A DNA stretch of 51,303 nucleotides, taken from positions 1 through 51,303 of the IMG/VR virus record IMGVR_UViG_3300050011_000546; one strand, 5' to 3'. Positions 29,511 through 49,567 of the stretch are shown here, piece by piece. Origin of the DNA: a virus. Its lineage: Duplodnaviria > Caudoviricetes. How positions within the stretch are numbered: position 1 is the first letter of the stretch; each line of letters begins with the position of its first letter. The notes beneath the pieces are model-generated. The model worked only from the letters and a program-made list of their open reading frames with translations, had not been told where the DNA came from and made no database searches. The translations under genes and the position numbers were made by a program.

Positions 29511-30473
29511 TTACGACGTCGTCAGGTCGAACACGCCGCCGGACGATTTCTCGTTGCGCGCGACCAGCGCATATTCCGAGAGAATCTGCCGCCGGTCGGA
29601 GTCGCCGGTTTTCGCCAGCGGCAGCGAGACCATCTTTCTGCCGTTGAGATAGGCCACCGCCCACTTGTCCATTTCCAGAACCAGCACGTCGCGGGCCCGC
29701 TGGAAGCGGTTGGCAACGACCTTGAGCGTTCCGAAATCGGATTCGTAGGCATCGACCGACGCCACAATTTTCTTCGACTTGGCTTCTTCGAAAGCGGTGG
29801 CGCGGCCGGTGAAAGTCGAGAACACCTGCTTGTTGAAGGCGCCGGTGAAGATCACGCCCGGCTTGCCACCATTGGTCCAGATCGAGGACAGTACGGTCTT
29901 GAGCGAAGCCTCGGTGAAGGCGCGCTGGGTGCCGTCGGTACGCGAACTGGTGCCGTCGCTCGGTGACGGGTTGGCCGGCGAACCGGCGGTACCCATGCTG
30001 GTATTGCTCGCGATCCAGGACAGGATCGACGCCGTCTGCCGCGCCGTCGTGGTATTGCCGGCGACCTTGGCCTGGTTGGTGCCGACCAGCGTGGTTTCCA
30101 TGTCGCGTTTCAACTCAAGGCCCTTGAGCATTTCCTGATACGCCAGTTCGTTGTCGCGGCCGGCATGATCGACCGCCTGCTGGGTGCCGGTTACGCGCGC
30201 CACCTTGTAGGAGATCTGGCAGAGATTGCCCAAACGAACCGTCGGCGTGGTGGTGTTGGTGGTGGGATCGTCGCCTTCGAGCTGGGCATTGGAGCCGGAA
30301 GCCGCCGCCAGCGCCTGGGTTTGCCATTCATGATTGACGGCGGTGGCTTTTTCCTTCTCCGCGCCGGTCATGAAGGGGGTATCGGTCGGATCGATGCGAT
30401 AGATCATATCGCTGAGGTCTTCGCGGTTGCCAATCGCCTGATAGGTGGCAAAGGTGGAAGTCGGGAGAGTCAT
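29511..30473 (-). CDS. Major capsid protein (DUF5309/SU10-type)
   Basis: GNREDLSDMI, HEWQT, NxCQI, ELKRDME, YESDFG, LAKTGD. Confidence 0.88.
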   Translation of the reverse strand: MTLPTSTFATYQAIGNREDLSDMIYRIDPTDTPFMTGAEKEKATAVNHEWQTQALAAASGSNAQLEGDDPTTNTTTPTVRLGNLCQISYKVARVTGTQQAVDHAGRDNELAYQEMLKGLELKRDMETTLVGTNQAKVAGNTTTARQTASILSWIASNTSMGTAGSPANPSPSDGTSSRTDGTQRAFTEASLKTVLSSIWTNGGKPGVIFTGAFNKQVFSTFTGRATAFEEAKSKKIVASVDAYESDFGTLKVVANRFQRARDVLVLEMDKWAVAYLNGRKMVSLPLAKTGDSDRRQILSEYALVARNEKSSGGVFDLTTS

Positions 30474-30475
30474 AT

Positions 30476-30830
30476 TCTCTGTGTCCTTGATGATGGCCGG
30501 CGCCGTATGGCTTCAAGCTGCGCTGCGCGCAACTGTTCGGCCGTGCCTTGAGCAAGCCGGCATGTACGCTCTCGCGGTGAGAGCTTGAATGGGTTCTGAC
30601 TTCGGATAACTGCGATTCTCGTTCCTGTTCGCGGATGCAGTTTCTTGCAGCAGGGCGCGAGGCAAGGCTTTGAAATCGCTGTTGACGTCCTTTGTCCAGG
30701 ACCTCGGGTGCGCGATGGGCGGAAGGGTCTCTTCCGGTTCGGCTTCTCCCGTGGGGGTATTTCGCCGGGCGCCTGTCTTGCAGGGTCGGCGTTTGGCATA
30801 TTGCCAATTCGGGTGTTCTGCGGTCGCTTG
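30476..30830 (-). pseudogene. Degraded scaffold gene remnant
   Basis: Canonical scaffold position; frame-broken IQALTAR...LRAAQL..RRR resembles the C-terminus of 11438-12622. Confidence 0.45.
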
Positions 30831-30984
30831 TGTCAGCGCGCTCTCAACAGATTATTGTTCGGGTTGTAACGCAATGCCGCAAGACCGACTGCCGACGGAT
30901 CGCTTCAGTCTTCGTTGCCATTGGCGTCGCGCGGGATGACGCGCCCGATCAAAGTGCGGACCTTTCGGGTGTCGTCTCTACGCG

Positions 30985-31246
30985 TCGAGAGGCTTACAGC
31001 CTTGACGGTGCCTGCACGAACCAAGCTGAGGAATATTTCAGCCGCTTGCGTCAGGCTGAAATCGGCATCCATCACCATATCGCTGGCGCATATTTACTTC
31101 GCTACGCGCAGGAGTCGTCATGGCGGGAAGATAACCGCCGCGTCTCCAATGGCGATCAGGTGAACCGCGTAGCAGCGCTGGCAATGAAGCGAGGCAAGAG
31201 CGTTGATCTTACCGGGTACTGGCAGCGGCACGTAGAAACCGCATAG
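30985..31246 (+). mobile_element. IS1595-family transposase, C-terminal fragment
   Basis: TNQAEEYFSRLRQAEIGIHHHIAGAYLLRYAQESSWRED...GYWQRH. Confidence 0.8.
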
Positions 31247-31251
31247 CCAAA

Positions 31252-31524
31252 TCATTTTTTCTTTGGTTTTTGAATCGGATTTACGACCGCAGCATCGACG
31301 ATCAAATTAGGCGGCGATCCCGGCTCGGTCGCTCTTTGAAGTTGCAGATTATTCGCTAGAATCATCACGCCGGGTTTAACGTCAGTCGGGACAAGCCCTA
31401 TCATTCCTATATTCAGGCCGAATTCGATAGCAAGCACCCATTTACCTTCGTGTATGCCATGCTGCTTAAGTAGAGATTCGGTGACCTCTTTTAGACTAAA
31501 AGTAAATGATGTCGTTTCAACCAT
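31252..31524 (-). CDS. Hypothetical protein
   Basis: Low-GC ORF overlapping the end of hicB. Confidence 0.6.
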   Translation of the reverse strand: MVETTSFTFSLKEVTESLLKQHGIHEGKWVLAIEFGLNIGMIGLVPTDVKPGVMILANNLQLQRATEPGSPPNLIVDAAVVNPIQKPKKK

Positions 31525-32077
31525 GGGCCACGCTCCCAGTATGGGAGTACTCGATTAATTTGGGTGATAGATTGTTGGCGCTCGACTGATGCCAATTTGT
31601 ACCCATTCCTTGTGCTGAGGTAGGAATAAGCACAAGATTACCTGCGCCGTGATTGAAGGGAATTAAGTTCACGACCGCCACGCTGCCTGACCACATCTCG
31701 CGGGAGTTCATAACGGCATTTCTTATACCTGCGGAAGAGGTGCTCGCAGTCAGCACAAATACCAAGTGCTGATTTAAGCTGACATTTTCATACTTTGCGC
31801 GCTCGATGAGCTGTGCATGAAGGGTGCGGGGTAATCTAAGGAGAATCTTCCCGCTCGGGAGATCGTCGAGTTGGGGCTTTGACGGATCGGGGATAGGGTT
31901 GCCAGCATTGCTGGCCGCTAGTTGCCAAGCATCGATAGCATCGCGCAATTCTGCTACGGCTTCCTCTTGGGTTTCGCCGAAAGCGGAGCAGCCCGGCAAA
32001 TCTGTAGCGACGGCAATAAATCCTTCGTCCTCGTCGCTGTAAAATACCTGAGCCGGATATCGTTGTGCGTCGATCAC
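31517..32077 (-). CDS. hicB: HicB family antitoxin
   Basis: DLPGCSAFGETQEEAV plus RHH-type SGKILLRLPRTLH...VSLNQ. Confidence 0.88.
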   Translation of the reverse strand: MIDAQRYPAQVFYSDEDEGFIAVATDLPGCSAFGETQEEAVAELRDAIDAWQLAASNAGNPIPDPSKPQLDDLPSGKILLRLPRTLHAQLIERAKYENVSLNQHLVFVLTASTSSAGIRNAVMNSREMWSGSVAVVNLIPFNHGAGNLVLIPTSAQGMGTNWHQSSANNLSPKLIEYSHTGSVAHG

Positions 32078-32343
32078 TTTTTACTCTCTGCTTCCGTTTC
32101 GTTTTCGGGCCAGTACTTCGCAATCATTTTTTGCAGTTGCTTGGCTTGATATGGCTTAATCATACCGTTCCTGTTCTGAAAATTCAGAAGGTCTGACTCC
32201 CCAGATTTTGAGTATGCTGCATGTGAACCCTTTTGGCCCTTGGCATTGAAGCCGAGCCACCCAGCGACCTTGCAAGCATCGTCGTAGCGAACATTTTTCG
32301 CGCTTTCCCGGATCGATGCGATGAGTGTTTCACGGGTTGACAC
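32074..32343 (-). CDS. hicA: HicA family toxin
   Basis: GF...KGSH...KPYQAKQ; overlaps hicB. Confidence 0.82.
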   Translation of the reverse strand: MSTRETLIASIRESAKNVRYDDACKVAGWLGFNAKGQKGSHAAYSKSGESDLLNFQNRNGMIKPYQAKQLQKMIAKYWPENETEAESKK

Positions 32344-32584: not shown

Positions 32585-32884
32585 TCACACGATCCCGAAC
32601 CGCCTCCTCCGCTCGGCGGTCTGCGCCAACTCCTTCAACTCAGCCTGCGCCAGTTTGCCGTTGGCGATGATGGCGGCGAGGTGGTCGCGGACCTTGCCGA
32701 CGATATTGATGGCGAGAAACAGTTTCTCGCGAGCACCAGCGTCGTCGATCGTGCTGGCGCGCCATGCCGCGGTGTAGTTTTCCTCCAGTCCGCGAAAGGC
32801 TTCGGTCAGCAGTTCGTTGTCGATCAACTCCTGCGCGCGGAGCGCTTTGACGGCGGCCTGGTCCAGACGGTTTTCGTCATTCAT
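32585..32884 (-). CDS. Conserved small phage protein normally following the portal
   Basis: RAQELIDNELL..AF...W......AREKL...GKLA; start MNDENRL. Confidence 0.75.
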   Translation of the reverse strand: MNDENRLDQAAVKALRAQELIDNELLTEAFRGLEENYTAAWRASTIDDAGAREKLFLAINIVGKVRDHLAAIIANGKLAQAELKELAQTAERRRRFGIV

Positions 32885-33018
32885 CGGCTTTTGTCCTTTT
32901 GCATTCTTGTTCGTCTTCAGATCATGACTGTGTGCGGTTGCCTCCATGACCAAGGCGGTTTCGTCCACATCCATCTGATGCTGCGCTTGTCGTCTCAGTT
33001 TCGCTCGATGCGCGATCG

Positions 33019-33837
33019 TCACTTCGACGGGTAGGATGGATCAATGGGCAGCGGGACCCAGGATCCTTCACGCAAGGTGGAGGCGCTGATGGTGAACCCA
33101 ACCCGGCAAGAGCCACGCGAGAGATAGAGCGTGCTGTGGTCGGCATCGACATCCACCCGCTCGATGAAGAACCGGTTGAGTTCTCCCTCCAGGCCGGCTG
33201 GAAACAACAGCGTCACGCCACTCCGATCGATCTGAAAAATGCCAATGGCATCGAAGCAGTCCTTCGCTCCCTCAAATCCCACGTAACTCTTGATTGTACC
33301 GTTCGTGCCCTGACGTAGGCTACCGGCATGCGCACTCGCCCTACGGTCACGATCTAATGTTTCCCTTTCGGCGGGCGACATAGGAAGGGGTTCGTCTTCC
33401 TTGCGAAGGCGAGTAATCTTGTTCAGGATCGCCTCCGGCCCTCTAGCGAACGCGTACACCAGCGGCACCCACTCGCCATTCCTTTGCTGTTGTTCGCTGA
33501 TGTCGATATCGATCCGGCAGGACTCCGCTTCGAGACGTCGTCGGAAGGTAAAGTCATCGGGGCCGGCCGTCGGGTCCATGTGGTAACCTGGACCGGTGCC
33601 CTTCATCATCGCCACGATGTCCGTCACGTTGCCAAGGGGACGGATTCGAAATAGTCCGGTTTGTTGCGGGCATATCGCGTCCGTCGCGGAGAACATAACG
33701 CGGAAGATGGCAAGCCGTGTGCCGAAAACGCTGGTCAAGTCATTGAGGTCCATATGCCCGCTTGATTTCTGGGCCAGCGCTGCCGGCGACAGCGCCATTA
33801 TCAAAAGTGCTGCAATGGCGTGAGCGGCGCGCAACAT
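33019..33837 (-). CDS. Sec-exported putative immunity protein (two-repeat), paralog 1
   Basis: Signal peptide ending ALA-QK; two CRxxxxIS...GxWVPL repeats. Confidence 0.6.
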   Translation of the reverse strand: MLRAAHAIAALLIMALSPAALAQKSSGHMDLNDLTSVFGTRLAIFRVMFSATDAICPQQTGLFRIRPLGNVTDIVAMMKGTGPGYHMDPTAGPDDFTFRRRLEAESCRIDIDISEQQQRNGEWVPLVYAFARGPEAILNKITRLRKEDEPLPMSPAERETLDRDRRASAHAGSLRQGTNGTIKSYVGFEGAKDCFDAIGIFQIDRSGVTLLFPAGLEGELNRFFIERVDVDADHSTLYLSRGSCRVGFTISASTLREGSWVPLPIDPSYPSK

Positions 33838-33898
33838 CCGTTTTCCATCTTCGGTTGAAAGCAGCCCATCTAACCGGGCCGGCCATCCTTACGCAACA

Positions 33899-34537
33899 CT
33901 ATCGAGGCCTGCTAATGGTAAATTTACCGTCGCCTCCCACCGTGACCGTCAATGGCCGCGCTGGACTGGCTTCGATCAAAGCGTAGCGTATACCGTCGAA
34001 TGCATAGAACGGACTGGTCGCTGTAAACATTAGTCCGGTATGATCGGCGGTCAGATACCGATGCGTTGGTTCAGTGGTCACCAACCCGTACAGATCTCCT
34101 CCATCGCTTATGGCCCCTGAATTTCCTGTTCGGTCTGCCTCGACTAACTTCCACTGATCATCCATCTTTTGCTTGTTGACAAGAGACTCTGCCGGTGTCG
34201 GATTGGCAAAGCCGTTGAAGGGAGGAGGTTCGGCGCCGCCTTGATCCGAACTTGGGTTCGGACCACCTCCGACATCGCCGCCCACAGAACTGAGACCATC
34301 GCCGCCTTGCGATCCGCCGGGGCCCGGTGCGCCGACATCGGATTGACCTGTTCCCGTTGCCGGCTGTTGCGGTGGGCTCTGCGGCTGAGGCTGCGCCTGC
34401 TCCGTCTGTATCTGAGCAGGTTGAGCCTGCGCTTGCTGAGCTATGCCATCGGCGAACGGATCGTAGTCAACCGGAACGAGTGAAACGTCGGAAAAATCCG
34501 GCTGATAGTCTACCGGCACCAATGAAAAATCAGGCAT
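33899..34537 (-). CDS. Class B cargo (SLVPVDYQPDF leader) with beta-rich C-terminal domain
   Basis: Start MPDFSLVPVDYQPDFSDVSLVPVD overlaps the third portal-end copy. Confidence 0.65.
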   Translation of the reverse strand: MPDFSLVPVDYQPDFSDVSLVPVDYDPFADGIAQQAQAQPAQIQTEQAQPQPQSPPQQPATGTGQSDVGAPGPGGSQGGDGLSSVGGDVGGGPNPSSDQGGAEPPPFNGFANPTPAESLVNKQKMDDQWKLVEADRTGNSGAISDGGDLYGLVTTEPTHRYLTADHTGLMFTATSPFYAFDGIRYALIEASPARPLTVTVGGDGKFTISRPR

Positions 34538-34615
34538 GATGAACCACCAACATGTATTTGCCGCGCCGCTTCGGGTCCGGAACATAATGGTGGCCGTCCC
34601 GGGCTTTCCGCGAGT
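34530..34615 (-). repeat. Third copy of the portal 3' end
   Basis: Encodes SRKARDGHHYVPDPKRRGKYMLVVHHA*. Confidence 0.85.
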
Positions 34616-34679
34616 GGGCCAAAGTGCAGCACCGTCACCGTATTTCTTCTTCCGCTACCAAAAATGACTTCCGAATTCC

Positions 34680-34916
34680 TCATTGCTGCTTTCCCAATTT
34701 GCGAAGCTCGGGATAGTCGCCATAAATCGATTCATACAGCAACCCGTCTATACGTGCGATGATTTCGCCCATCAACTTCTTAACAGCCAGGATCTCCTCC
34801 TCTGAACTCGTAGCTTTTGCAAGAAGCAATGCGGAATTTAGCTCCTTTATTGCTTGTTCGGCGTGTGTTTGGAATCGTTTGGCTGTTTGAATATCCATCA
34901 GAGACGTCCCATGCAT
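34680..34916 (-). CDS. Orphan immunity-like protein resembling 38126-38350
   Basis: MDxxxA...SSEE...G...I...P pattern shared with 38126-38350. Confidence 0.5.
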   Translation of the reverse strand: MHGTSLMDIQTAKRFQTHAEQAIKELNSALLLAKATSSEEEILAVKKLMGEIIARIDGLLYESIYGDYPELRKLGKQQ

Positions 34917-35011
34917 TATGCTACGCTGCGCGTTGTGCGGGGTTCATCTTCTGCGCTTCCGTTACATCCATCGGACGACTAACCTTCTCAGTTTCGTTCG
35001 ATGCGCAGTCG

Positions 35012-35818
35012 TCACTTCGACGGGTTGATTGGCGCGATGGCCAGCGGGACCCAGGATCCTTCACGCAAGATCGAGGCGCTAATGGTGAACCCAACCCGGC
35101 AAGAGCCACGCGAGAGATAGAGCGTGCTGTGGTCGGCATCGACATCCACGCGCTCGATCGCAAAGCGGTTAAGTTCTCCGCCTAGACCGGTCGGGAATAA
35201 CAACGTCACGCCTCCCTGATCGATTAGGTAAGTCCCGACGGCCTCGAAGCAGTCTTGCATTCCCTCAAATCCCACGACGCTCTTGAAAGTTCCGCCTACT
35301 CCCTGACGCAAACTGCCGGCATGCAATCTCGCCCGGTCGTTGCGACCATGTGCTTCGAGTTCGGCCGGCGACAACGCGGGGCTATCATCGATTTTGCGAG
35401 TGAGACCACCCGAGGTGGCATTCGGCCGGCTAGCGGACGGCAGCAACAGCGGCACCCACTCGCCATTTCTTTGCTGTTGCTCGCTGATGTCGATATCTAT
35501 TCGGCAAGAATCCGTCGAGACACGCCGCCTTTCGGTAAAGTCATCGGGACCTGTCGTTTCGTCCATTCGCCAATCCCGACCGCCCGGAAGAACGGTCACG
35601 ATGTCCGTCACGCTGTCATTTGCCCTGATCCGAAATGTTCCGATTTGCTGAGGGCAAATCGCATCCGTCTTGGAGATCGCAACACGAAAGACCGCAAGCT
35701 GCGAGCCAGGTACGCCGCTCATGTCCTCAAGGTCCATATGCCCGCTTGATTTCTGGGCCAGCGCAGCCGGCGAAAGTGCCACCATCAAAAGTGCCGCAAT
35801 GATGTGAGAGACGCGCAA
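35012..35818 (-). CDS. Sec-exported putative immunity protein, paralog 2
   Basis: Paralog of 33019-33837 with near-identical C-terminus. Confidence 0.6.
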   Translation of the reverse strand: MRVSHIIAALLMVALSPAALAQKSSGHMDLEDMSGVPGSQLAVFRVAISKTDAICPQQIGTFRIRANDSVTDIVTVLPGGRDWRMDETTGPDDFTERRRVSTDSCRIDIDISEQQQRNGEWVPLLLPSASRPNATSGGLTRKIDDSPALSPAELEAHGRNDRARLHAGSLRQGVGGTFKSVVGFEGMQDCFEAVGTYLIDQGGVTLLFPTGLGGELNRFAIERVDVDADHSTLYLSRGSCRVGFTISASILREGSWVPLAIAPINPSK

Positions 35819-35900
35819 TGTCTATTTGTCCTGGTGGATATCAAATCGGAAAAAAGTCGCCGCCAAATGTAATCGCACCGACTATTTTTACGCAACTACA

Positions 35901-36527
35901 TTAAGGCGGACTTATGGTAAGCTTGTTGTCGCTCGTGACTGTAACTCTAACTGGGTGCTCTGGACTGGCATCAAAAGTCGCGTAGTGCGTACCATCGAAG
36001 CCATAAAACGGACTAGTTGCTATAAATGTTACTCCAGTGTCGGCGTCGGTCCGGGCCACGAACGATGGTCCTGTGGTTACGAAGTGGTACGTCTTGCCTC
36101 CTTCGATGACGTTAGCTTTCGCTTCCCTGGCATCGATCGCCCTTTCCTGATCCTTCATCTTGCCCTGGGCAACAAAAGCCTCCGTTGGCGTCGGATTAGC
36201 GTAGCCGTCAAAGGGAGCAGGCTCGGATCCACCTTGATCCGAAGTCGGGTTGAGATCACCTCCAGCATCGCCGCCACTGGGACTGAGACCATCGCCGCCT
36301 TGCGATCCGCCGGGGGCGCTCCCGCCTACAGCCGGCGTGCCGACATTGGGTTGACCGACTCCCGTTGCCGACTGTTGCGGCGGATTTTCCGGTTGAGGCT
36401 GTGCCAGTTGAGCCTGCGCCTGCTGAACCGCGTCATCAGCACCGAACGAATCGTGGTCAACCGGAACGAGCGAAACGTCGGAAAAATCCAGTTGATAGTC
36501 TACCGGCACCAAAGAGTAGTCAGACAT
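35901..36527 (-). CDS. Class B cargo, paralog of 33899-34537
   Basis: MSDYSLVPVDYQLDFSDVSLVPVD; ANPTP and ATSPFYxFDG motifs. Confidence 0.65.
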   Translation of the reverse strand: MSDYSLVPVDYQLDFSDVSLVPVDHDSFGADDAVQQAQAQLAQPQPENPPQQSATGVGQPNVGTPAVGGSAPGGSQGGDGLSPSGGDAGGDLNPTSDQGGSEPAPFDGYANPTPTEAFVAQGKMKDQERAIDAREAKANVIEGGKTYHFVTTGPSFVARTDADTGVTFIATSPFYGFDGTHYATFDASPEHPVRVTVTSDNKLTISPP

Positions 36528-36930
36528 GATGAACAACCAACAGGAATTTGCCGGGCCGCTTCGGGTCCGGAACATAATGGTGGCCGTCCCTGACTTTCCG
36601 CGAGCCTGGTACGGGGGAACGCTGCATCTTCTGCGCTTCTGTCGCCTTCAGATGCGCGTCGAATAGCGCCATCTTGGCGTCGAGGTCGGCTTTGATCCTC
36701 GCAAGCTCGATCTCAGCCTGGGCTTTGACCTGCAAATGGATGGCGTCGTTTTGCGCTTTCTGTTGCGCGATCTGCGCCTGATGCGCGGCTGTCGCCTGAT
36801 CGATCTGCGCCTTGGCCTGAATCTGCAGCAATTTTGGGTCCGGCGGCGGCGCGGGCGGTGGCGCCGGCGGATGCAAGAGCTGCCCGGCCTGCGGATTGAT
36901 CGCGTAGGGATCGTTAAAAAACTTGTCGGG
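36520..36930 (-). repeat. Second copy of the portal 3' end (~410 bp)
   Basis: PDKFFNDP...PPPDPKLL...QNDAIHLQVK...DGHHYV...VVHHV* matches 38697-39110. Confidence 0.9.
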
Positions 36931-36954
36931 CCCTCGTTATTTATGCAGCTCTTG

Positions 36955-37341
36955 TCATACGGCTTCAATAATCTTCGCCGAGGCGTCGTCGGGAACACAT
37001 CGGAAGCCACATGCCGAAAGTATCAATTTTTCATTTCCTCGCCAAAGACCGTACCGGTTACGTACCCACAATCCGAGACCGAAATGCATAGAATTTAAGT
37101 GATCCTTGTTCGTGACCATCATTTCGAGCTTTTCGTACGGAGTAATCCGCGGCAGAATATCGCGTACGACTTCTTCTACTGTTACGGGCCAGTTTTCTTG
37201 ATTGAGCAAAAATGGGTCCGTTTTAATCTCAGGGGTCGTCATCCACATAGTTATCAGGAAGACCGCGATAAGGACTAGAATGCTACCGCATGCAAATTTC
37301 GCTCGGCGGCTCCACGATCCATCATTTTCCAGACTGAGCAT
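36955..37341 (-). CDS. Membrane-anchored DUF6794-like protein, possibly truncated
   Basis: N-terminal TM; HFGLGLWVRNRYGLWRGN. Confidence 0.55.
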   Translation of the reverse strand: MLSLENDGSWSRRAKFACGSILVLIAVFLITMWMTTPEIKTDPFLLNQENWPVTVEEVVRDILPRITPYEKLEMMVTNKDHLNSMHFGLGLWVRNRYGLWRGNEKLILSACGFRCVPDDASAKIIEAV

Positions 37342-37502
37342 TCGAAAATTCCTCTCTCTTTGGCGACCTTAGCTTGGGACTAAAATGGCCCGGGGGAATT
37401 TAGGGCTGTCCAGGAGACTTCTTGGAGGGGCCGTTGGTGTTACCAAGTACAGAAACGTCGCGCCGTCAAAGGCGGCGGCTTACGCTATGCCAATCCGCTC
37501 TT

Positions 37503-38003
37503 CTATGATCTGCGCCGGAACGACAGTGCGAGGAGTTCTTCGCGCGTCAGCCTCTCTTGTGGCTCTTTTAGCACGATGGCTGTAAGTGCTGCAGGATCTC
37601 TCCGAACGTATCGCCGAACGTCCACGGTAATTGGGAATACATCGTCAACGCCCAGACCAAGGAAGCGAGCAAGCGCCTCTGGACCTCGAGACGTAACTTC
37701 GGCATCTTGATAGCGCGCAAGGTGAAACCATTTGCCACTGCGTTCAATCGAGAGAGCCAGGAAGTGTCGGGTGGCGCGCGGATGTTTGACGTCGAAATTT
37801 CCGAAAAGCCCCCATACCTCTAAGCCATTCGCGAGGCAAACCTGGGTACCTACTATCCTGTTGTCGAGGGTCTCAACCGGGAGCTTCTCGACCGGCCGGG
37901 CCATTGTCTCGCCAATTTCATCGTCGTTCAAAAACTCCCAGACAGGATGAGCCTTGAAGTCGGCCACCATCAGCGATTCAGCAGGCTTGATGTTCTCGAT
38001 CAT
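37503..38003 (-). CDS. Hypothetical protein, orphan immunity candidate
   Basis: Low-GC ORF within the cassette array. Confidence 0.5.
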   Translation of the reverse strand: MIENIKPAESLMVADFKAHPVWEFLNDDEIGETMARPVEKLPVETLDNRIVGTQVCLANGLEVWGLFGNFDVKHPRATRHFLALSIERSGKWFHLARYQDAEVTSRGPEALARFLGLGVDDVFPITVDVRRYVRRDPAALTAIVLKEPQERLTREELLALSFRRRS

Positions 38004-38125
38004 GGCGCTGGAAACCCGTTTTTGAGTAACGCATCATAGAGCTTCGTGCCGTGCTCTGCATCGAAATCTTTCGTGTACGCCGCAAGTTCTTGGAGTGCCT
38101 GCTGCCTCTCCGTCGGACCAAGGCT

Positions 38126-38350
38126 TCAATTCCCAGGTGGCAGTAATTCCTTTGGAGTAATATCGATAAATTTTGAATGCAAAGAGGCAGAGATATCTAT
38201 CAGGGCGGACAGCGATTTTCCAAGTGATAACACGACCTCTGAAAATTCTTCAGAAGAAAGATTGTTTTTCATGTAATGCGCTATGCCATCTAAATTGGCT
38301 CGCGCTCCTATTAACATTCCATCAATCCTGATCGCTGCATCTCGGTCCAT
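38126..38350 (-). CDS. Putative cognate immunity for 38372-38704
   Basis: Small helical ORF just downstream of the cargo. Confidence 0.55.
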   Translation of the reverse strand: MDRDAAIRIDGMLIGARANLDGIAHYMKNNLSSEEFSEVVLSLGKSLSALIDISASLHSKFIDITPKELLPPGN

Positions 38351-38371
38351 TTTACGCTCCAGGTTCGTTTG

Positions 38372-38704
38372 CTAAAAGTGTCTGTCCCATCTTCGGAAGC
38401 CGGAGGACCCACCTGACATACATGCGAGCATGCACCGATGAAAGCTGATTCCATAGTCGGTGGTCGGCAAGGCCAATACGACGCATTTGCTAATGCAATC
38501 ATCCTTGTTCAGAACTGGAGTTGGAGCAGCTAGAGTTGGAGCGCGGGCAGATCCAGTACTTGGCACTGGGGTAAACGCCCCGAGAGCCGTTAAATCAGTG
38601 GGAGTTGCGCCGTCGTTGCTGAACTGATCGTGGTCTACGGGAACCAACGAAGCATCTCCGAAATCCGGCTGATAGTCTACCGGCACCAAAGAGTAGTCAG
38701 GCAT
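38372..38704 (-). CDS. Class B cargo with short Cys-rich C-terminal domain
   Basis: MPDYSLVPVDYQPDF start overlaps the portal stop; CISKC...FHRCMLAC. Confidence 0.65.
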   Translation of the reverse strand: MPDYSLVPVDYQPDFGDASLVPVDHDQFSNDGATPTDLTALGAFTPVPSTGSARAPTLAAPTPVLNKDDCISKCVVLALPTTDYGISFHRCMLACMSGGSSGFRRWDRHF

Positions 38705-40376
38705 GATGAACCACCAACATGTATTTGCCGGACCGTTTCGAGTCAGCGACGTAATGATGACCGTCCCTCGCCTTCCGCGCACCCGGCGGATATGAGCGCG
38801 GCGTCTTCCGCGCTTCCGTCGCGGCTTTGAGATGCGCGTCGAGCACCGCCATCTTGGCATCGAGCTCGGCCTTGATCCTGGCGAGCTCGATCTCGGCCTG
38901 GTTCTTGACTTGCAGATGGATGGCGTCGTTCTGCGCCTTCTGTTGCTGCGCCTGCATCTGATGCGCGGCGATCGCTTGATCGGACTGCGCCTTCGCCTGC
39001 GCGATTAGCAGTTTCGGATCGGGCGGCGGCGATGGCGGCGCAGGCGGCGGATGCAGCAGTTGTCCGGTCTGCGGGTTGATCGCGCTGGGATCGTTAAAGA
39101 ACTTGTCCGGATTCTTGTGCCCCATGATTCTCGTGATCTCGGCCGCGGTGTTATAAAGCTGGGGATCGCCGACCAGATTGGCCTTGCCGCCCGAAACCAG
39201 CTTCTCCTGGATATTGGCCAGCGCCATCACTTGCGCGAACTGCTGCGCCTTGCCGCCGGAGCCCAGGCCCACATTGATGGTCATGTCGTTGCGGGTTTTC
39301 CAGTTGCGCGGATCGACATTGATCCACGCATTGCGCAGGCGAACCGTCTGCTGCTGCTGGCCGTGCTTGCGGATGGTGCCGTGCAGCAGCGCAAAAATAT
39401 CGCGCACGCCCTCCGCCATGATGCGGGCGATCAACTTCATGCGCATTTGCGAGGCGTTGAAGACCTGCGCCACCGCGGTCGCGGATTGATTCTGCAAGGC
39501 GTCGGCGTCGATGCCCTGGGTTTGCTTGCTGACGCCGGTCCGGCTTTCCAGCTCGGCATCGAGATATTGCATCATCGGATAAACCGACGTCGTGATATCC
39601 GGCACCACCTGCCAGTTCAGCCCGCCCGCGGTCTTGGTGCGGACCACGCCGCCCGGGCGCGACACCAGCAGGTCGTCGAGCGTATTGGGCCCGGCATTGC
39701 TTTCGGCCACTTCCACCCGCGGGTTGTTGTGCAGATAGAGATTATCCAGCGCACCGCGCTTGAGCGCGGGTTTCTCCCGCTGCAGCGGCATCACCAGATC
39801 GGCCATCGAGCGGCCGAAAAAGCGATGCGTCATCGGTACCGGCGTGGTCGTCGCGAACGGGATCGCGTCGAACGGCTCGACGCAGTCCTTACCGTCCTTG
39901 CGCAGGATTTCGCCCTGATCGCCGCCGGTGATGACCTGATAGAGACAGGCGCGGCCGTTGCCGTCGTAATCCATCCGCACATAGTGCTCGGTAATGCGAA
40001 CAAGACGCGCCGCCGAATTGACGCCGCCGGCCGAGGTGCTGTAATGCTCCTCCACGGTATCGCGGGCCAGCGTTTCGATCTCGGTATTGCCGGTGTAATC
40101 GCCAAGCGATTTGATTTGATCTTCGTCGAATCCTTCCGCGATCAGCTGACTTTCGGTTTTGGTCACGACTTCATGGAAACAGTAGTTGCAGGTCTTGACG
40201 TCCCGCGCGCCGCGCTCGATGCCGAATTCTTCCGGGGGCACGCCCAGCACCCTGGCCTGGGCGAGTTTCCTCGTCGTGACGATGGTGACGTCGTGGGTGA
40301 CGGGCGTGGCCATCGGAGGCATTGCCTGCATAAGGGGAACAGTCGCCTGCGTGGCGTAATTTCCGGCGGCTTTCAT
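38697..40376 (-). CDS. Portal protein, C-terminal part
   Basis: VPPEEF, PF...P.P.THRFFGRS, LDNLYLHNNP, ESRTGVS, TINVGLG. Confidence 0.85.
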   Translation of the reverse strand: MKAAGNYATQATVPLMQAMPPMATPVTHDVTIVTTRKLAQARVLGVPPEEFGIERGARDVKTCNYCFHEVVTKTESQLIAEGFDEDQIKSLGDYTGNTEIETLARDTVEEHYSTSAGGVNSAARLVRITEHYVRMDYDGNGRACLYQVITGGDQGEILRKDGKDCVEPFDAIPFATTTPVPMTHRFFGRSMADLVMPLQREKPALKRGALDNLYLHNNPRVEVAESNAGPNTLDDLLVSRPGGVVRTKTAGGLNWQVVPDITTSVYPMMQYLDAELESRTGVSKQTQGIDADALQNQSATAVAQVFNASQMRMKLIARIMAEGVRDIFALLHGTIRKHGQQQQTVRLRNAWINVDPRNWKTRNDMTINVGLGSGGKAQQFAQVMALANIQEKLVSGGKANLVGDPQLYNTAAEITRIMGHKNPDKFFNDPSAINPQTGQLLHPPPAPPSPPPDPKLLIAQAKAQSDQAIAAHQMQAQQQKAQNDAIHLQVKNQAEIELARIKAELDAKMAVLDAHLKAATEARKTPRSYPPGARKARDGHHYVADSKRSGKYMLVVHHA

Positions 40377-40951
40377 CAGCTCGTCGCCTCCGACTCTTGT
40401 GCGGTGTCCAGCGCGTTGTGGATGGTATGCGCGATAATTTTCATGGCGCCGTCCGACATCTCGACCGCCTGCGCCAGCAGGGCGAACTGGTCATCCGTCA
40501 GATCGTAATAGGTTTCGCGTTCTTCCTCTTCGCGCTCTTCCCACCAGACCTTGACGATGCCGACCTTCGACAACAACGCGTCCTTGATGAAGGAATACAG
40601 GATCATGAAGCCGGGATTCTGCTGCATGAAGACGTGATTGACATAATCTGTCTCCTGCGCGGCCGCCGCTTCATCCTCGGGACCAACCGGCTCGAAGCGG
40701 ACCACTTCATCGGAGCCGGCAAAGATATCCATCAAGTTCGGCATCAGGCCTTCGATGGTATCGGCCACGTCGGTCGAAACCGCGCGCGAGCGCCCGTCCT
40801 GCGCCGGCATGTCGCTGGACATGTCGCCGAGATAGTAATCCATCGCATCGGCGCACTCTTCAGCGAGTTGTGCTGCCGAGATCGCCGCCAAGGCGTTGGC
40901 CTTTTCCGAGGCCAGCATGGATTTGAGATCGAGAACGGACATTTTGGGCAT
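40376..40951 (-). CDS. Portal protein, N-terminal part
   Basis: DYYLG...GRSRAVSTDVADTIE...F.P...ED...A.QETDYVN...KDALL.K.GIVKVWW. Confidence 0.85.
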   Translation of the reverse strand: MPKMSVLDLKSMLASEKANALAAISAAQLAEECADAMDYYLGDMSSDMPAQDGRSRAVSTDVADTIEGLMPNLMDIFAGSDEVVRFEPVGPEDEAAAAQETDYVNHVFMQQNPGFMILYSFIKDALLSKVGIVKVWWEEREEEERETYYDLTDDQFALLAQAVEMSDGAMKIIAHTIHNALDTAQESEATS

Positions 40952-41155: not shown

Positions 41156-41975
41156 TCAGCGCCTATAAAGCGGACTGAAGATCGGCGGCACCTGAAATTC
41201 GGTGGGATTCTCAGGCTCTACGCCCGCCAGGGAAGCGATCCATTTATTGATGTTGCCGTAGGCCGAAGCGTAGTTTGACAGTGTGAAGGGCGGCGGCGGT
41301 TTGGCAGGATCAAAAACGTACGCCGGCGAATTGTCGGCGTTGGATGGCGACGGTGTCGGCGCTGCAGGCGCGGATGCCGGACCATCGGGGGCCGCCGAGT
41401 TCCTGTATTTCTCCAGCGCACGCAAGAGCGCAGAATCGGCATCGTCCAAACTACCTGCCGGTTAGGTATTCACTCGTGCCGCTCCAAACGGAATTTCCTG
41501 CCAACGGATGGGGTGAGGTCTCAAGACTAGGATCGTAACTAACGACTACTTCGTGAGACGGTTCTTTCGTAGAGCGCACTGCGTCAAAATGGGCCTTTTC
41601 ATTCGGCCCCAAATCGATACATCCAGCTGATCCCGGGGTAAAGCCGCCGTGGATGAAGAAGTTTTTTCGACCATTGGTCGACGTTGAATCCGGCACAAGC
41701 GCTGCGCGTTCCGTGCCCCAAGCAGCCATCGATCCCGGAAACCGCCCATGCTTCGGTACCAACCCTGCCACCGCATCAAACGTAGTTAGAGGCTGGATGT
41801 CATCTGTCGAAAAAGAATATCTTCCTTCGGTAAGCGGTCCCCTGAACGGCAAATTCTGATCGCTAGGCCTTTGATTTCTACTCCTGCCCGAGATGGCTGG
41901 CCAAGATCCCACAATCGAGCCATCAGGACGATAGAGCGTCAGGGAGTATCCATCAAAAACGCTTCGATCAGCCAT
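41156..41975 (-). pseudogene. Class A cargo with Tlde1/DUF2778 L,D-transpeptidase-like domain; tail disconnected
   Basis: WG.ERAAL.P...GRKNFFIHGGFTPGSAGCIDL; stop at 41451 separates it from the IFSPLYRR tail (41156-41449). Confidence 0.75.
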
Positions 41976-41995
41976 CGTTTGTTCTACCACTCGGG

Positions 41996-42334
41996 TTAGC
42001 AATAACTCATATCAAAAAATGACAGCAACGGTTCACCAAGCAACCAGGCAGCCCAGGCAATCAAGTAGACAAGCAAATAGTTTCGTTGCGCGAGCCAATA
42101 TAAGCCCAGCAGCACGGCTATATCCACGCAGATTAACGTGAGATGAGTGAATAGGTATCGCTCAAAACTTCCGTACATCCAGCAATATTCAACGCCTCTT
42201 TCGCCAATGAACTCACGCGTCGCGTTCAAAGTTAAGAGAAGAACCATCGCGCCTAGACCAACCAAAGCAGCCGCGGCATAAATTGGATAGAACATCCATC
42301 GCTGGCGAGACGTAGATATGTTTTTGTTGGACAT
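41996..42334 (-). CDS. 3-TM membrane protein, candidate immunity for the Tlde1-like cargo
   Basis: Hydrophobic; directly upstream of the cargo and downstream of a 24-bp motif. Confidence 0.55.
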   Translation of the reverse strand: MSNKNISTSRQRWMFYPIYAAAALVGLGAMVLLLTLNATREFIGERGVEYCWMYGSFERYLFTHLTLICVDIAVLLGLYWLAQRNYLLVYLIAWAAWLLGEPLLSFFDMSYC

Positions 42335-42517: not shown

Positions 42518-43546
42518 TCAGCGCCGATAGAACGGACTGAAGATCGGTGGCGGCGAAAACTCCGTGGGGTCGTCGGGATCGATGCCTGTCAAAGAAGCTA
42601 TCCATTTATCAATGTTGCTGAGCGCCGAAGCGTAGTTTGACGGCGTGAAGGCCGGCGGCGGCTTGGTCGGATCGAATACGAGTGCTGGCGAATTATCGGG
42701 GCTGGATGGCGCGAGCGTTGGCTCCGCTGCAACAGACGCCGGATCAGGAACCGCTGATCTCCTGTACTTCTCCAGCGCACGCAAGAGCGGAGAATTGGCA
42801 TCGCTGGCGCCGCTTGCGGGAGCGGAGCCCCAGTTTCCGAAGCGGTTGTCAAACGATTCGGGACGATCGGAGGGGGCTGGCGCGGAAATGCCTACCGGAG
42901 CGGAGCCCCATTTTTCAAAGCGATCGCCGAACGAATTTTGACGATCGGGAGAAAGAACATCATTATGCGGAACGAACGGCACGGCGGGCGCTCTTGCCAC
43001 GTCCGGTGCGTTACCAAATCCGTTGCCTGCATTGACGCCGAGACCCTGCAAGTATTGTTGGTATTCTTGAAGATAAGCCGGCGGACTTGGATTGGGGTCG
43101 ACGGGGCCTTGTCGATCCCAGAAGGCGGTTGGATTTACTATATTTCCTGCAGGATCCTTCAATTGATAGTGAACGTGTTGTTGCTCGGTGCCGGTGTTGC
43201 CCATCGTACCGATCAACTGGCCTGCGGCAACCGGGTCGCCTGCCGTCAGAAACTGAGTATGGGTATGCAATATTTCGTGAGAAAAGCCATTCTTGTCCCG
43301 TATGGCTATTCTTCCAAAAGTGCCCTCTCCCGGTTTTGTTGTCACGATTCCGGAGACTGGCGAGCGCAGCGCCGGGTGCGTGAGATTGATTCCCGTCGGT
43401 CCAACCGAATAGTTGAAATCTACGCCGCCGTGAGGAATCGATGAGGGCGGCGTTCTACCCTTTACCGCTCCATACGGACTGGTGATTTCGGGCGAAACGC
43501 CGCCGATCGGAGGCAACACTCGCCGCATGATGCCTTTCCACGACAT
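42518..43546 (-). CDS. Class A cargo with M23 metallopeptidase domain
   Basis: ITSPYG, HGGVD (HxxxD), GQLIGTMGNTG, HVHY (HxH); ends PPIFSPFYRR; no signal peptide. Confidence 0.85.
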   Translation of the reverse strand: MSWKGIMRRVLPPIGGVSPEITSPYGAVKGRTPPSSIPHGGVDFNYSVGPTGINLTHPALRSPVSGIVTTKPGEGTFGRIAIRDKNGFSHEILHTHTQFLTAGDPVAAGQLIGTMGNTGTEQQHVHYQLKDPAGNIVNPTAFWDRQGPVDPNPSPPAYLQEYQQYLQGLGVNAGNGFGNAPDVARAPAVPFVPHNDVLSPDRQNSFGDRFEKWGSAPVGISAPAPSDRPESFDNRFGNWGSAPASGASDANSPLLRALEKYRRSAVPDPASVAAEPTLAPSSPDNSPALVFDPTKPPPAFTPSNYASALSNIDKWIASLTGIDPDDPTEFSPPPIFSPFYRR

Positions 43547-47926: not shown

Positions 47927-49567
47927 TCAACGCCGATAGAGCGGACTGAAGACCGGCGGCACCTGAAACTGCGTGGGATCGTCGGGATCGACGCCTGCCA
48001 GCGAAGCGATCCATTTGTCGATGCTGCCGTTGCCGGTTGCGGAAGAGTAATCAGGCGGAGCGACGATTGGCGGAACAGACTGATATGGATTCGGGGCGTT
48101 GATGCCCGGAGAGGATGCAGGTGCTTGCGGCTGGCCGGCGGTCAGCTGGTTCAGATATTGACGAAACATCTCGCTGTAGGAAGGCGCCGAATCCTGGGAT
48201 TGCTGCGGAGTGTCCCCTGTCTCGGTTGAAGCCCAGTTTCCGAAGCGGTCGCCGAACGAATCCCCACGATCGGAAACTGGAAACCCGTTAGATGGCGCTA
48301 CCGGCGCGCCGCTCTCGAATGCGGACGTTCGCGAGTCATCGACGATTCGCCCGACCAGACGTCGCACTGGCAGTGGAGGCGGAGATCCATCCGCATCTGT
48401 CGTCGCGCTGCCGTACAGAGGCGGCGACGGGGATGCGGCCTGTGCGGAGGGGATCAGGCTATTCTCAATGTAACCCCCGGCGCCGCCCAGTAACCGTGCG
48501 GCCCGGCTTCTGGCAGCATACAGTCCGTCGGCGAGCTGAGAACCAAAGCCGGGCTCGGACGCGTTGGACGGTACGAGCGACGGCGCTGCGGCAACGGACG
48601 ATAGGCCGTCGGGAGCCTCCGATCGCCTGTATTTCTCCAGCGCACGCAGGAGCGGTGAATCCGTATCGCCGGAGTCGCCTGCCGGGACAGAGCCCCAGTT
48701 TCCGAAGCGGCTGTCGAACGTTCCGGAACTATCTGTTGACCCCCCGATTAGCGGCGAAGTAATCGCGCTATTTCCTATGATCCGCTCGAGCTCGCGGTTA
48801 CGAACCATCGAGGACAACCAGCCATCAGGCCCTGGGGATGGTACGATTTTATCCAATGCCTGCGGAAAGGACCCTGCGTGGGGATCGGCGTTCGTGGGAT
48901 CGGTAAATCCGACTGAGGGTGTGATGTTCCCGATAGTTGTCGATGCGACCAACCGACGAATGTCGCCGTTAAACGAACGGCCGAACGCAGTTTTAAATTG
49001 GTCGCCCGACGCGAATGCCTGACTTCCCTGAAGCGAATTACCCGGAACAGTCGCTGGCGGTCCATATGTAGAATCAAAATAATCCCGAACGCCCTTTGCG
49101 ATGAACGGAGGGTTTTTTGGATTGCTGCCGAAGTTCGGGCCGGCCGTCTTGGGGTTGACCAACATATTATATCCACCGGCGGCGGCCATAAGGGTGGTCG
49201 GCGAAAAGCCCGCGGCAGCTCCAATAAGACCGTAGGCGTAGGAAGCCGCTGGCGCGAATAAGCTCGCGAAGAGAGCATTCGACTGTCCATTATAGTTACG
49301 TTGGAGATCCCATGGACCTCCGTCCTTAACATTGCGACCAAAATCTAGGAAGGCGGCCGCAGTCGATTTAGAAGCGAGCGACTTGCCGAAGGCAATCGCG
49401 GCGGCCGGATCGAACGTTACCGGAAACCATATCTTGTTTCCTTGGGAGTCTACGACGTCATTGCCGAATCGGTCGACGATCGTCTTTGCCTGAACATTAA
49501 AAATTCGCGTTCTTTCGTTGGGTTCATCGGTGAGCCGCTGGGTAAAGGTTCGGAATTCCTGGGTCAT
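47927..49567 (-). CDS. Class A cargo with Ntox44-like domain
   Basis: NVKDGGPWDLQR...ASYAYGLIGAAAGF...FGSNPKN...IAKG; ends VPPVFSPLYRR. Confidence 0.7.
   Translation of the reverse strand: MTQEFRTFTQRLTDEPNERTRIFNVQAKTIVDRFGNDVVDSQGNKIWFPVTFDPAAAIAFGKSLASKSTAAAFLDFGRNVKDGGPWDLQRNYNGQSNALFASLFAPAASYAYGLIGAAAGFSPTTLMAAAGGYNMLVNPKTAGPNFGSNPKNPPFIAKGVRDYFDSTYGPPATVPGNSLQGSQAFASGDQFKTAFGRSFNGDIRRLVASTTIGNITPSVGFTDPTNADPHAGSFPQALDKIVPSPGPDGWLSSMVRNRELERIIGNSAITSPLIGGSTDSSGTFDSRFGNWGSVPAGDSGDTDSPLLRALEKYRRSEAPDGLSSVAAAPSLVPSNASEPGFGSQLADGLYAARSRAARLLGGAGGYIENSLIPSAQAASPSPPLYGSATTDADGSPPPLPVRRLVGRIVDDSRTSAFESGAPVAPSNGFPVSDRGDSFGDRFGNWASTETGDTPQQSQDSAPSYSEMFRQYLNQLTAGQPQAPASSPGINAPNPYQSVPPIVAPPDYSSATGNGSIDKWIASLAGVDPDDPTQFQVPPVFSPLYRR

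Follow-up and report, generated by a model that had tools for sequence, protein, structure and literature searches.

A putative toxin/immunity cassette island in the portal 3' end of an SU10-like Bradyrhizobium podovirus and a candidate dock-and-plug peptide pair

Contact-dependent inhibition (CDI; cdiA-CT/cdiI) and Rhs loci carry orphan arrays, in which headless toxin/immunity modules lie in series downstream of the main gene. The internal proteins of phage T4 bear an N-terminal capsid-targeting sequence, reach the head by the scaffolding-core route and have that sequence cut off by the prohead protease, while the only phage-borne polymorphic toxins that we know of are those recognized through the MuF domain. 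Here we describe an array of putative toxin and immunity genes directly behind the portal gene of the IMG/VR record IMGVR_UViG_3300050011_000546, a 51.3-kb provirus record with the structural genes of the SU10 podovirus type; its whole length of 51,303 nucleotides (nt) is called the window below. On balance we favor the reading that positions 33019-38804 form a hypervariable toxin/immunity cassette island in the portal 3' end of an SU10-like temperate podovirus of Bradyrhizobium, in which a short leader on each toxin would dock on a tail of the portal and the toxins would be loaded into the head.

The delivery and biological role of the MuF polymorphic toxins of temperate phages are stated as still open in the available portions of three papers (Jamet et al. 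2017, PMC5576092; Zhang et al. 2012, PMC3482391; and PMC11699363, on Bxa/Apk2). As those portions describe them, the MuF toxins resemble the present genes in several ways: they come next after the portal gene in a temperate tailed phage, join a conserved N-terminus to variable C-terminal toxins (nucleases, ADP-ribosyltransferases), and have both adjacent and orphan immunity genes; their packaging in the head has been proposed. Unlike the MuF toxins, the leader proteins described here give no MuF match in Pfam (0 of 43 family members, and none of the three window proteins), their conserved part comprises only ~30 residues and is paired with a swapped portal tail, and their genes overlap the portal translationally and form arrays of up to three cassettes divided by portal-end copies. 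The hosts here are Bradyrhizobium, and the phage is an SU10-like podovirus.

All genes discussed lie on the minus strand (Table 1). The original prediction held that the C-terminal coding end of the portal occurs three times, at 38697, 36520 and 34530, and that each copy overlaps the ATG of an open reading frame (ORF) starting with a doubled SLVPVD motif. A self-comparison of the region by blastn recovered the three-copy family and bore out both points. Specifically, 36444-36930 matches 38621-39110 (79.1% identity over 493 nt, E 1.9e-116), 34454-34612 matches 38621-38779 (81.1% over 159 nt, E 8e-39), and 32993-34614 matches 34986-36604 (72.8% over 1664 nt, E 0), the last pair comprising the whole of modules C and B. 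The same family of three 162-nt copies was returned by a repeat search at 34453, 36443 and 38620. The portal stop and the ends of its copies at 38697, 36520 and 34530 face leader ATGs at 38704, 36527 and 34537, with an 8-nt stop/start overlap (ATG..TGA) at all three junctions. The three copies are real but very unequal in length, namely the full gene end, a ~410-nt piece and an ~85-nt piece; by tblastn the second corresponds to portal residues ~421-552 and the third to residues 533-559 only. Serial portal-end copies with a twin-SLVPVD gene at each are confirmed.

Portal relatives show the same site both empty and filled. A portal search of viral contigs gave 279 relatives, and the locus counts refer to the best 80 of the 279. 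Forty-six of these loci have a native portal tail whose stop overlaps the conserved gene p99, and no leader, whereas the remaining 34 carry a conserved tail in place of the final 35 portal residues, followed by 1-3 leader genes, with p99 lying 1-8 kb further on. By a strict pattern, the special tail is present in 33 of the 34 leader-bearing loci versus none of the 46 leader-less ones, and the 34th (L048) carries a variant. The filled loci contain 52 leader starts, 42 of them with the strict tail pattern no more than 110 nt upstream; at least two leaders occur in 16 loci, and the presence of five duplicate locus pairs leaves 29 distinct sets. The cultured Bradyrhizobium phage ppBeUSDA76-2, a spontaneously produced phage for which the available part of PMC10127595 reports podophage morphology, has the empty-site form, with the gene order terminase, portal N piece (184 aa), portal C piece (553 aa), p99, scaffold and capsid. 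Judged by this comparison, 33019-38804 (~5.8 kb) is an insertion into the portal 3' end. A lack of variation in the gene after the portal had been set beforehand as a finding that would speak against the original prediction; the gene right behind the portal varies widely among the related loci.

The leader defines a large protein family, as a search with the leader, proposed together with that prediction, revealed: leader residues 1-40 found 533 protein clusters (116-371 aa) and another 16 clusters (372-502 aa), and Bradyrhizobium is the sole organism name that the sources attach to them. When 43 distinct leader proteins were aligned, conservation was limited to the first ~30 residues. Pfam assigns parts of these proteins to WHH (4 proteins), Colicin-DNase (3), DUF4329 (3), NucA/NucB (2), Tox-ART-HYD1 (1, E 9e-30), HNH (1) and other families, and the downstream genes in the relatives encode SUKH-1 after WHH (E 1e-24), ComJ after NucA/B (E 4e-21), DUF6881 after HYD1 and DUF4265 after HNH. 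A conserved N-terminus with exchangeable C-termini and an immunity gene immediately downstream, the marks of polymorphic toxins in the available text of Zhang et al. (2012, PMC3482391), are both found here. That the leader proteins are a polymorphic toxin family undergoing cassette exchange is well supported by these sequence comparisons. One relative (L019:2128-4518) encodes a 796-aa leader protein with two tandem HExxH-containing modules, the second behind its own degenerate leader-like motif, which looks like a fusion of two cassettes.

Within the window, leader proteins A, B and C share their first ~32 residues; C is 61% identical to B over residues 1-211, and 72% identical to A over residues 1-32 only. 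The expectation that each leader ORF has a variable C-terminus and is followed by an immunity candidate holds insofar as partner genes do follow, but module A is trailed by three small genes. The twin-CxxxC domain of A recurs in L011 and L094, followed both times by the 74-aa gene, which is also present in L005 and L006. In L005 and L016, a homologue of the 166-aa gene begins at the stop of a 291-aa leader toxin; this toxin is absent from the window, so that the 166-aa gene is an orphan immunity-type gene here. The cargo domain shared by B and C is followed in every copy found by a ~270-aa exported protein (twice in the window, and in L007/8, L020/47, L039, L088 and L089), and we read the two as a probable cognate pair acting outside the cytoplasm. 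Cognate immunity in the window itself is suggested through co-occurrence only. In P0122, the B/C cargo domain stands behind another N-terminus, of the MGLFD...GGLPGRL type, which is the tag of the window's 'class C' ejection-region genes; cargo domains are thus shuffled between two tags. In L020:11840-12784 and L089:7771-8715, the exported partner has ~40 extra C-terminal residues similar to the beginning of the cargo domain, which are probably the scar of a recombination with the following module.

The window's three leader proteins gave no match in Pfam, leader protein A likewise none in PHROG or NCBIfam, and NCBIfam was empty for ten window proteins; a tblastn search with leader C against cultured phages found no match, and the leader profile found none among PDB sequences at E<=10. 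An AlphaFold2 (AF2) model of leader C residues 100-212 shows one helix and eight strands (predicted local distance difference test, pLDDT, 83; predicted template modelling score, pTM, 0.76), for which a fold search returned no match at E<=0.001 in PDB or BFVD. The B/C cargo domain occurs in only 23 representative clusters, all of short proteins. The AF2 model of the 272-aa partner is poor (pLDDT 59), and nothing above a template modelling (TM) score of 0.32 was found for this protein in the protein atlas. Judged from family context only, the window's own cargo domains would be toxic.

The cassettes appear to move between phages. The copies are 19-27% divergent and are therefore not recent in-place duplications; the modules look as if they were acquired from different phages. 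Comparison between genomes, not within this strain, shows a pattern in which each incoming cassette brings a portal-end copy with the 35-residue tail plus a toxin gene whose ATG lies over the portal stop, while older cassettes and the ancestral tail are pushed downstream, hence the serial portal-end copies. By the same comparison, exchange takes place through homologous recombination, for which one flank uses the portal end/leader and the other p99 or further shared cassette DNA. In an independent metagenome run (X4), a 1039-nt contig joins window position 36858 to 39046; the joint skips 2187 nt and contains 7 other letters, which keeps it in register with the 2180-nt offset of the repeats. 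X4 has no cover over module A and places module B directly behind a full portal, the sequence of fragment 2 forming the portal end. It is a related sequence (~91-96% identity) and not a recombinant of the same strain. A second joint in X4, from 34548 to 34679 with 39 other letters, is read as a replaced spacer only. The contigs of three further runs (X1-X3, of which X1 and X2 may be the source sample) show the window's form only, without alternative joints, and break at the repeats; since contigs drop rare variants, they are silent on within-strain recombinants. The predicted recombination that sets another toxin behind the portal is thus backed by the X4 variant and by the diverse relatives, but by no within-strain joint in the X1-X3 contigs.

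The likeness to CDI/Rhs orphan modules drawn in the original prediction holds in its recombination logic: the modules are preceded by conserved upstream copies usable for recombination (79-81% identical), and they have diverged, suggesting acquisition from other strains. The principle of recombination into orphan toxin modules is stated in the portion of PMC3482391 that covers them. The likeness fails in that the modules here are not headless and the portal fragments are scars. Unlike in CDI/Rhs, what is repeated comes from another gene, namely the portal end, together with the leader that belongs to the toxin itself, and the window's downstream toxin genes are complete with ATG, GGTGG and full leader, and hence need not be silent. 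The portal fragments of the relatives have many lengths and are often split between frames (tblastn); being frame-shifted in several relatives, they are regarded as scars. This truncation, together with downstream leader genes cut short in some relatives (e.g. L028, L012, L020), is what would be expected if the serial copies and downstream leader genes were decaying leftovers of past duplications with no present function. We consider that highly improbable, since none of the window's three leader genes or of their partners is broken, the frames of modules B and C remain open although the two are now 73% identical at the nt level, the cargo-partner pairing is conserved across loci, and the leader is under purifying selection.

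The pairing of the leader with the preceding tail extends well beyond these portals. We call the twin leader motif the plug and the tail motif the dock. A motif scan of viral contigs gave 73 loci, with the motif at an ORF start in 55; in 47 of the 55 the upstream ORF ends at the start of the motif ORF, sharing one base with the start codon in 28. The upstream protein ends in the dock motif in 42 of these 47 (27 in the long form, 15 in a shorter form), and four of the remaining five are visible dock variants. Ten dock-bearing proteins that were sampled include three portals (SU10-type twice and P22-type once, E 8e-75), two matches to 'DNA ejection protein' (one with a tail-lysozyme domain), one transglycosylase-like protein and four without assignment. 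Pam5, a cultured short-tailed cyanophage according to the available part of PMC9382816 (Pseudanabaena phage, ON014757; L218:4876-5180), has an annotated tail lysozyme that ends in the dock, and the following gene starts with two plugs, the stop and start overlapping by one base. At two distant genome loci, proteins of 665 and 420 aa carry a similar tail at the C-terminus, and the next genes, encoding 1091 and 1929 aa (the latter with LPD38, L140), start with two or three motif copies. Seventeen more giant proteins (1074-2666 aa) start with 2-4 motif copies, and several of them have polyvalent-protein domains (precomputed PF18857). The pair thus links consecutive proteins of the head interior or the ejection apparatus, in phages without shared DNA similarity.

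Iyer et al. (2017, PMC5512222, available portion) describe effectors joined to a portal or MuF domain as well as polyvalent proteins, and predict that these travel inside the head and enter the cell along with the DNA; the giant motif-bearing proteins share polyvalent-protein domains with the proteins described there. Unlike the portal-fused effectors, the cargo here is a separate small protein with the peptide pair as the proposed joint, a pair that goes unmentioned in that portion of PMC5512222. The literature search found no description of the leader tag or the portal tail, and the motif strings matched nothing.

The proposed mechanism is as follows. The ~30-residue leader, with two units (SLVPVD-x-x-PDF / SLVPVDHDPF), would serve as a plug that docks on the portal tail ..DGHHYVPDPxRPGKYLLVVHH. 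With the tail pointing into the capsid, as we suppose, the portal would retain the toxins within the head and would also be their way out along with the DNA, while the prophage immunity genes would protect lysogens. Since the three window leader genes are all complete, one particle may carry a mixture. A similar logic is found in the T4 internal proteins, where a short N-terminal tag suffices for variable proteins to be loaded into the head for injection, and where the locus varies between related phages. Unlike in T4, the tag would have as its partner the tail of a portal or ejection protein, and no prohead protease of that kind was seen here, although no search was aimed at one. The twin SLVPVD as loading tag, a part of the original prediction, has strong comparative support in the 42 of 47 pairs, but is complicated by chromosomal leaders in genomes without this portal. 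A loading tag, with a proposed binding of leader to tail, is the best explanation of the comparisons. A predicted complex of the portal tail (60 aa) and leader (45 aa) scored 0.20 versus a mark of 0.32, with controls absent, and is evidence neither way. Residue co-variation between tail and leader was dropped as a measure, since overlapping codons specify the final tail residue and residue 2 of the leader, and the other positions are linked on the DNA.

More tentatively, and at a level that we would call possible rather than probable, the plug, twin SLVPVD(H/Y)DPF, and the dock, ..DG(H/W)(H/Y)YVPDPxRPGKYLxV, may be an undescribed pair by which many podovirus-like phages, with hosts ranging from Bradyrhizobium to cyanobacteria, chain ejection proteins inside the capsid either to the portal or to one another. 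The dock would have been grafted onto Bradyrhizobium portals and the plug placed on swappable toxins, up to twelve per particle; with a plug-tagged host locus lying under a phage-type late-gene upstream sequence, host toxins could also ride in heads. The system as a whole would thus be one of phage-borne polymorphic toxins with a possibly general, undescribed dock-and-plug peptide pair. If general, the pair would account for the way in which ejection proteins and giant injected proteins come to lie inside podovirus heads, would make injected cargo recognizable from sequence alone and would offer an easy means of loading proteins of choice into the phage particles of laboratory strains. With a tag of ~30 residues and a candidate receptor of ~35 residues on the portal, the loading hypothesis is directly testable. 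Additionally, the locus is a clear case of cassette exchange at a structural-gene junction, and a chromosomal reservoir of the same cassettes is indicated in an agriculturally important genus.

Several observations weigh against head loading, and two rivals draw on them. The first concerns translation and exchange. A Shine-Dalgarno-like GGTGG stands upstream of each window leader gene, inside the last codons of the tail, and this ribosome-binding site accounts for part of the local conservation. The longest exact matches among the three junction copies, 31-36 nt, are located exactly at the tail/leader junction, and such a length is about the minimum for RecA-type recombination. The arrays are mosaic with orphan immunity genes, and other accessory genes such as HicA/HicB lie near by. 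Tail and leader might then be kept for translational coupling and swap homology, the toxin/immunity pairs acting unloaded in the lysogen by addiction or exclusion. We judge this quite unlikely. The dN/dS ratio (nonsynonymous to synonymous substitution rates) is 0.18 for the tail and 0.16 for the leader at a dS of about 1.1 (the pairs are not independent); with synonymous sites saturated while the peptides are conserved, conservation acts at the protein level. Coupling does not require ~30 conserved leader residues, and the pair is kept across portal families and ejection-protein neighbors in phages without DNA similarity. The array coding strand has no promoter-like site and only two weak terminator-like sites, which fits co-transcription with the head genes.

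The remaining adverse points concern leaders away from phages and the nature of the cargo. Leaders were found at 54 genome loci, about 30 of which lack a portal, and 30 of the 31 portal-less loci compared align to one neighborhood of phosphoglucomutase, chemoreceptor, aspartyl protease and HrpB helicase genes. In ~30 Bradyrhizobium genomes, 1-3 leader-toxin genes lie between phosphoglucomutase and HrpB helicase (L090:6600-9800; L088-L139), with no phage structural gene within 7 kb. In two complete genomes that carry the locus, neither an SU10-type portal (E<=1e-10) nor a significant tail-profile match (best E 0.026) was found. Constraint on the chromosomal leaders persists in weaker form (dN/dS 0.43 at dS 0.15). 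The window's three cargo domains match no recognized toxin family or fold, and the signal-peptide partners imply periplasmic action, which fits podovirus ejection but also attack from outside.

These points would suit bacteriocin-like toxins freed at lysis, with the acidic, repeated, unstructured leader as an import signal and the portal position giving only late expression: leader toxins occur without a portal in genomes without this phage, the B/C target is probably periplasmic, and the twin motifs with a Q/P-rich linker recall the translocation domains of colicins and their Tol/TonB-binding boxes. This reading is nevertheless unlikely. The leader proteins have no receptor-binding domain, and many are just 100-350 aa long; the leader is always accompanied by a tail on the preceding protein that is conserved at the protein level; and the motif heads 1000-2700-aa proteins after portals and ejection proteins of unrelated phages, including a cyanophage, where an import box is unexpected. 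For docking and head loading, which we continue to prefer, the chromosomal locus leaves two options: either its toxins travel in phages that arrive from elsewhere, or the leader serves a further role that needs no portal. The chromosomal leader genes differ in their C-termini and stand behind a decayed ~65-nt portal-tail remnant. A non-coding stretch before the capsid gene (window 30709-30843) is homologous to the region upstream of the chromosomal leaders (70-75% over ~270 nt), and each phage locus contains several copies, 80-91% identical, of its first ~90 nt, a hairpin plus T run (positions for these elements include L115:6600-7000 and L029:10174-10438).

Table 1. Features of the portal end and cassette array in the window
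Feature	Position	Strand	Description
Portal N-terminal piece	40376..40951	-	191 aa; Pfam SU10_portal E 7.8e-55, profile positions 2-169; stop overlaps start of next piece
Portal C-terminal piece	38697..40376	-	559 aa; Pfam SU10_portal E 1.4e-129, profile positions 165-588
Swapped tail of portal (proposed dock)	38700-38804	-	last 35 residues; ends ..GHHYV.D..R.GKY.LVVHH
Leader protein A	38372..38704	-	110 aa; twin SLVPVD leader, linker, small twin CxxxC C-terminal domain; hidden Markov model of leader, 68.6 bits
Immunity-type gene after leader A	38126..38350	-	74 aa; co-occurs with Cys-rich domain; no family match
Orphan immunity-type gene	37503..38003	-	166 aa; homologues in L005, L016
DUF6794 membrane protein, accessory array gene	36955..37341	-	128 aa; Pfam DUF6794 E 5e-10; homologues in arrays L005, L014, L015
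Portal 3' fragment 2, heads module B	36520..36936	-	residues ~421-559, tail included; tblastn 77% identity over 421-552
Leader protein B	35901..36527	-	208 aa; leader, Q/P/G-rich linker, ~110-aa helix-plus-beta cargo domain
Exported partner of cargo B	35012..35818	-	268 aa; signal-peptide-like N-terminus; 68% identical to partner of C
Orphan immunity-type gene	34680..34916	-	78 aa; homologues behind other leader toxins in L009, L051/L052, L016, L095
Portal 3' fragment 3, heads module C	34530..34614	-	residues 533-559; tblastn 85%; the 159-nt blastn span takes in the leader start
Leader protein C	33899..34537	-	212 aa; paralogue of B
Exported partner of cargo C	33019..33837	-	272 aa; no Pfam or NCBIfam match
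Ancestral ('native') portal-tail remnant, far end of insertion	32885..33022	-	matches tails of leader-less relatives
p99, right border of array	32585..32884	-	conserved 99-aa gene; overlaps portal stop in empty-site relatives

The SU10-type structural set of the window comprises the portal, the major capsid protein (29511-30473), the adaptor and the large terminase. The portal, which had been taken as intact, is complete as a profile but encoded as two overlapping ORFs and not as one polypeptide (Pfam; junction at 40376). Solved SU10-type portal relatives are single chains of 705-747 aa. The two-ORF portal (~190 aa + ~555 aa) is common to all relatives in which both pieces were seen (L004-L083), and the portal of ppBeUSDA76-2 is also split (L142:5423-7638). 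The two portal pieces are separated by 0.1-7 kb of variable genes in many relatives (e.g. L010, L014, L046 and L063).

The scaffold gene of ppBeUSDA76-2 was sought between p99 and the capsid gene of its close relatives, the window included, and these are non-coding there. The p99-to-capsid interval of the window (30692-32343) contains genes resembling HicA (a weak match that falls below the Pfam cut-off) and the antitoxin HicB, and a 90-aa ORF, as well as an IS1595-type transposase fragment on the opposite strand. Further cargo-like genes flank the terminase and portal at 41451-42002, 42518-43546 and 47927-49567, and their three Pfam matches are Tlde1/YkuD-like (below the cut-off), Peptidase_M23 and Ntox44.

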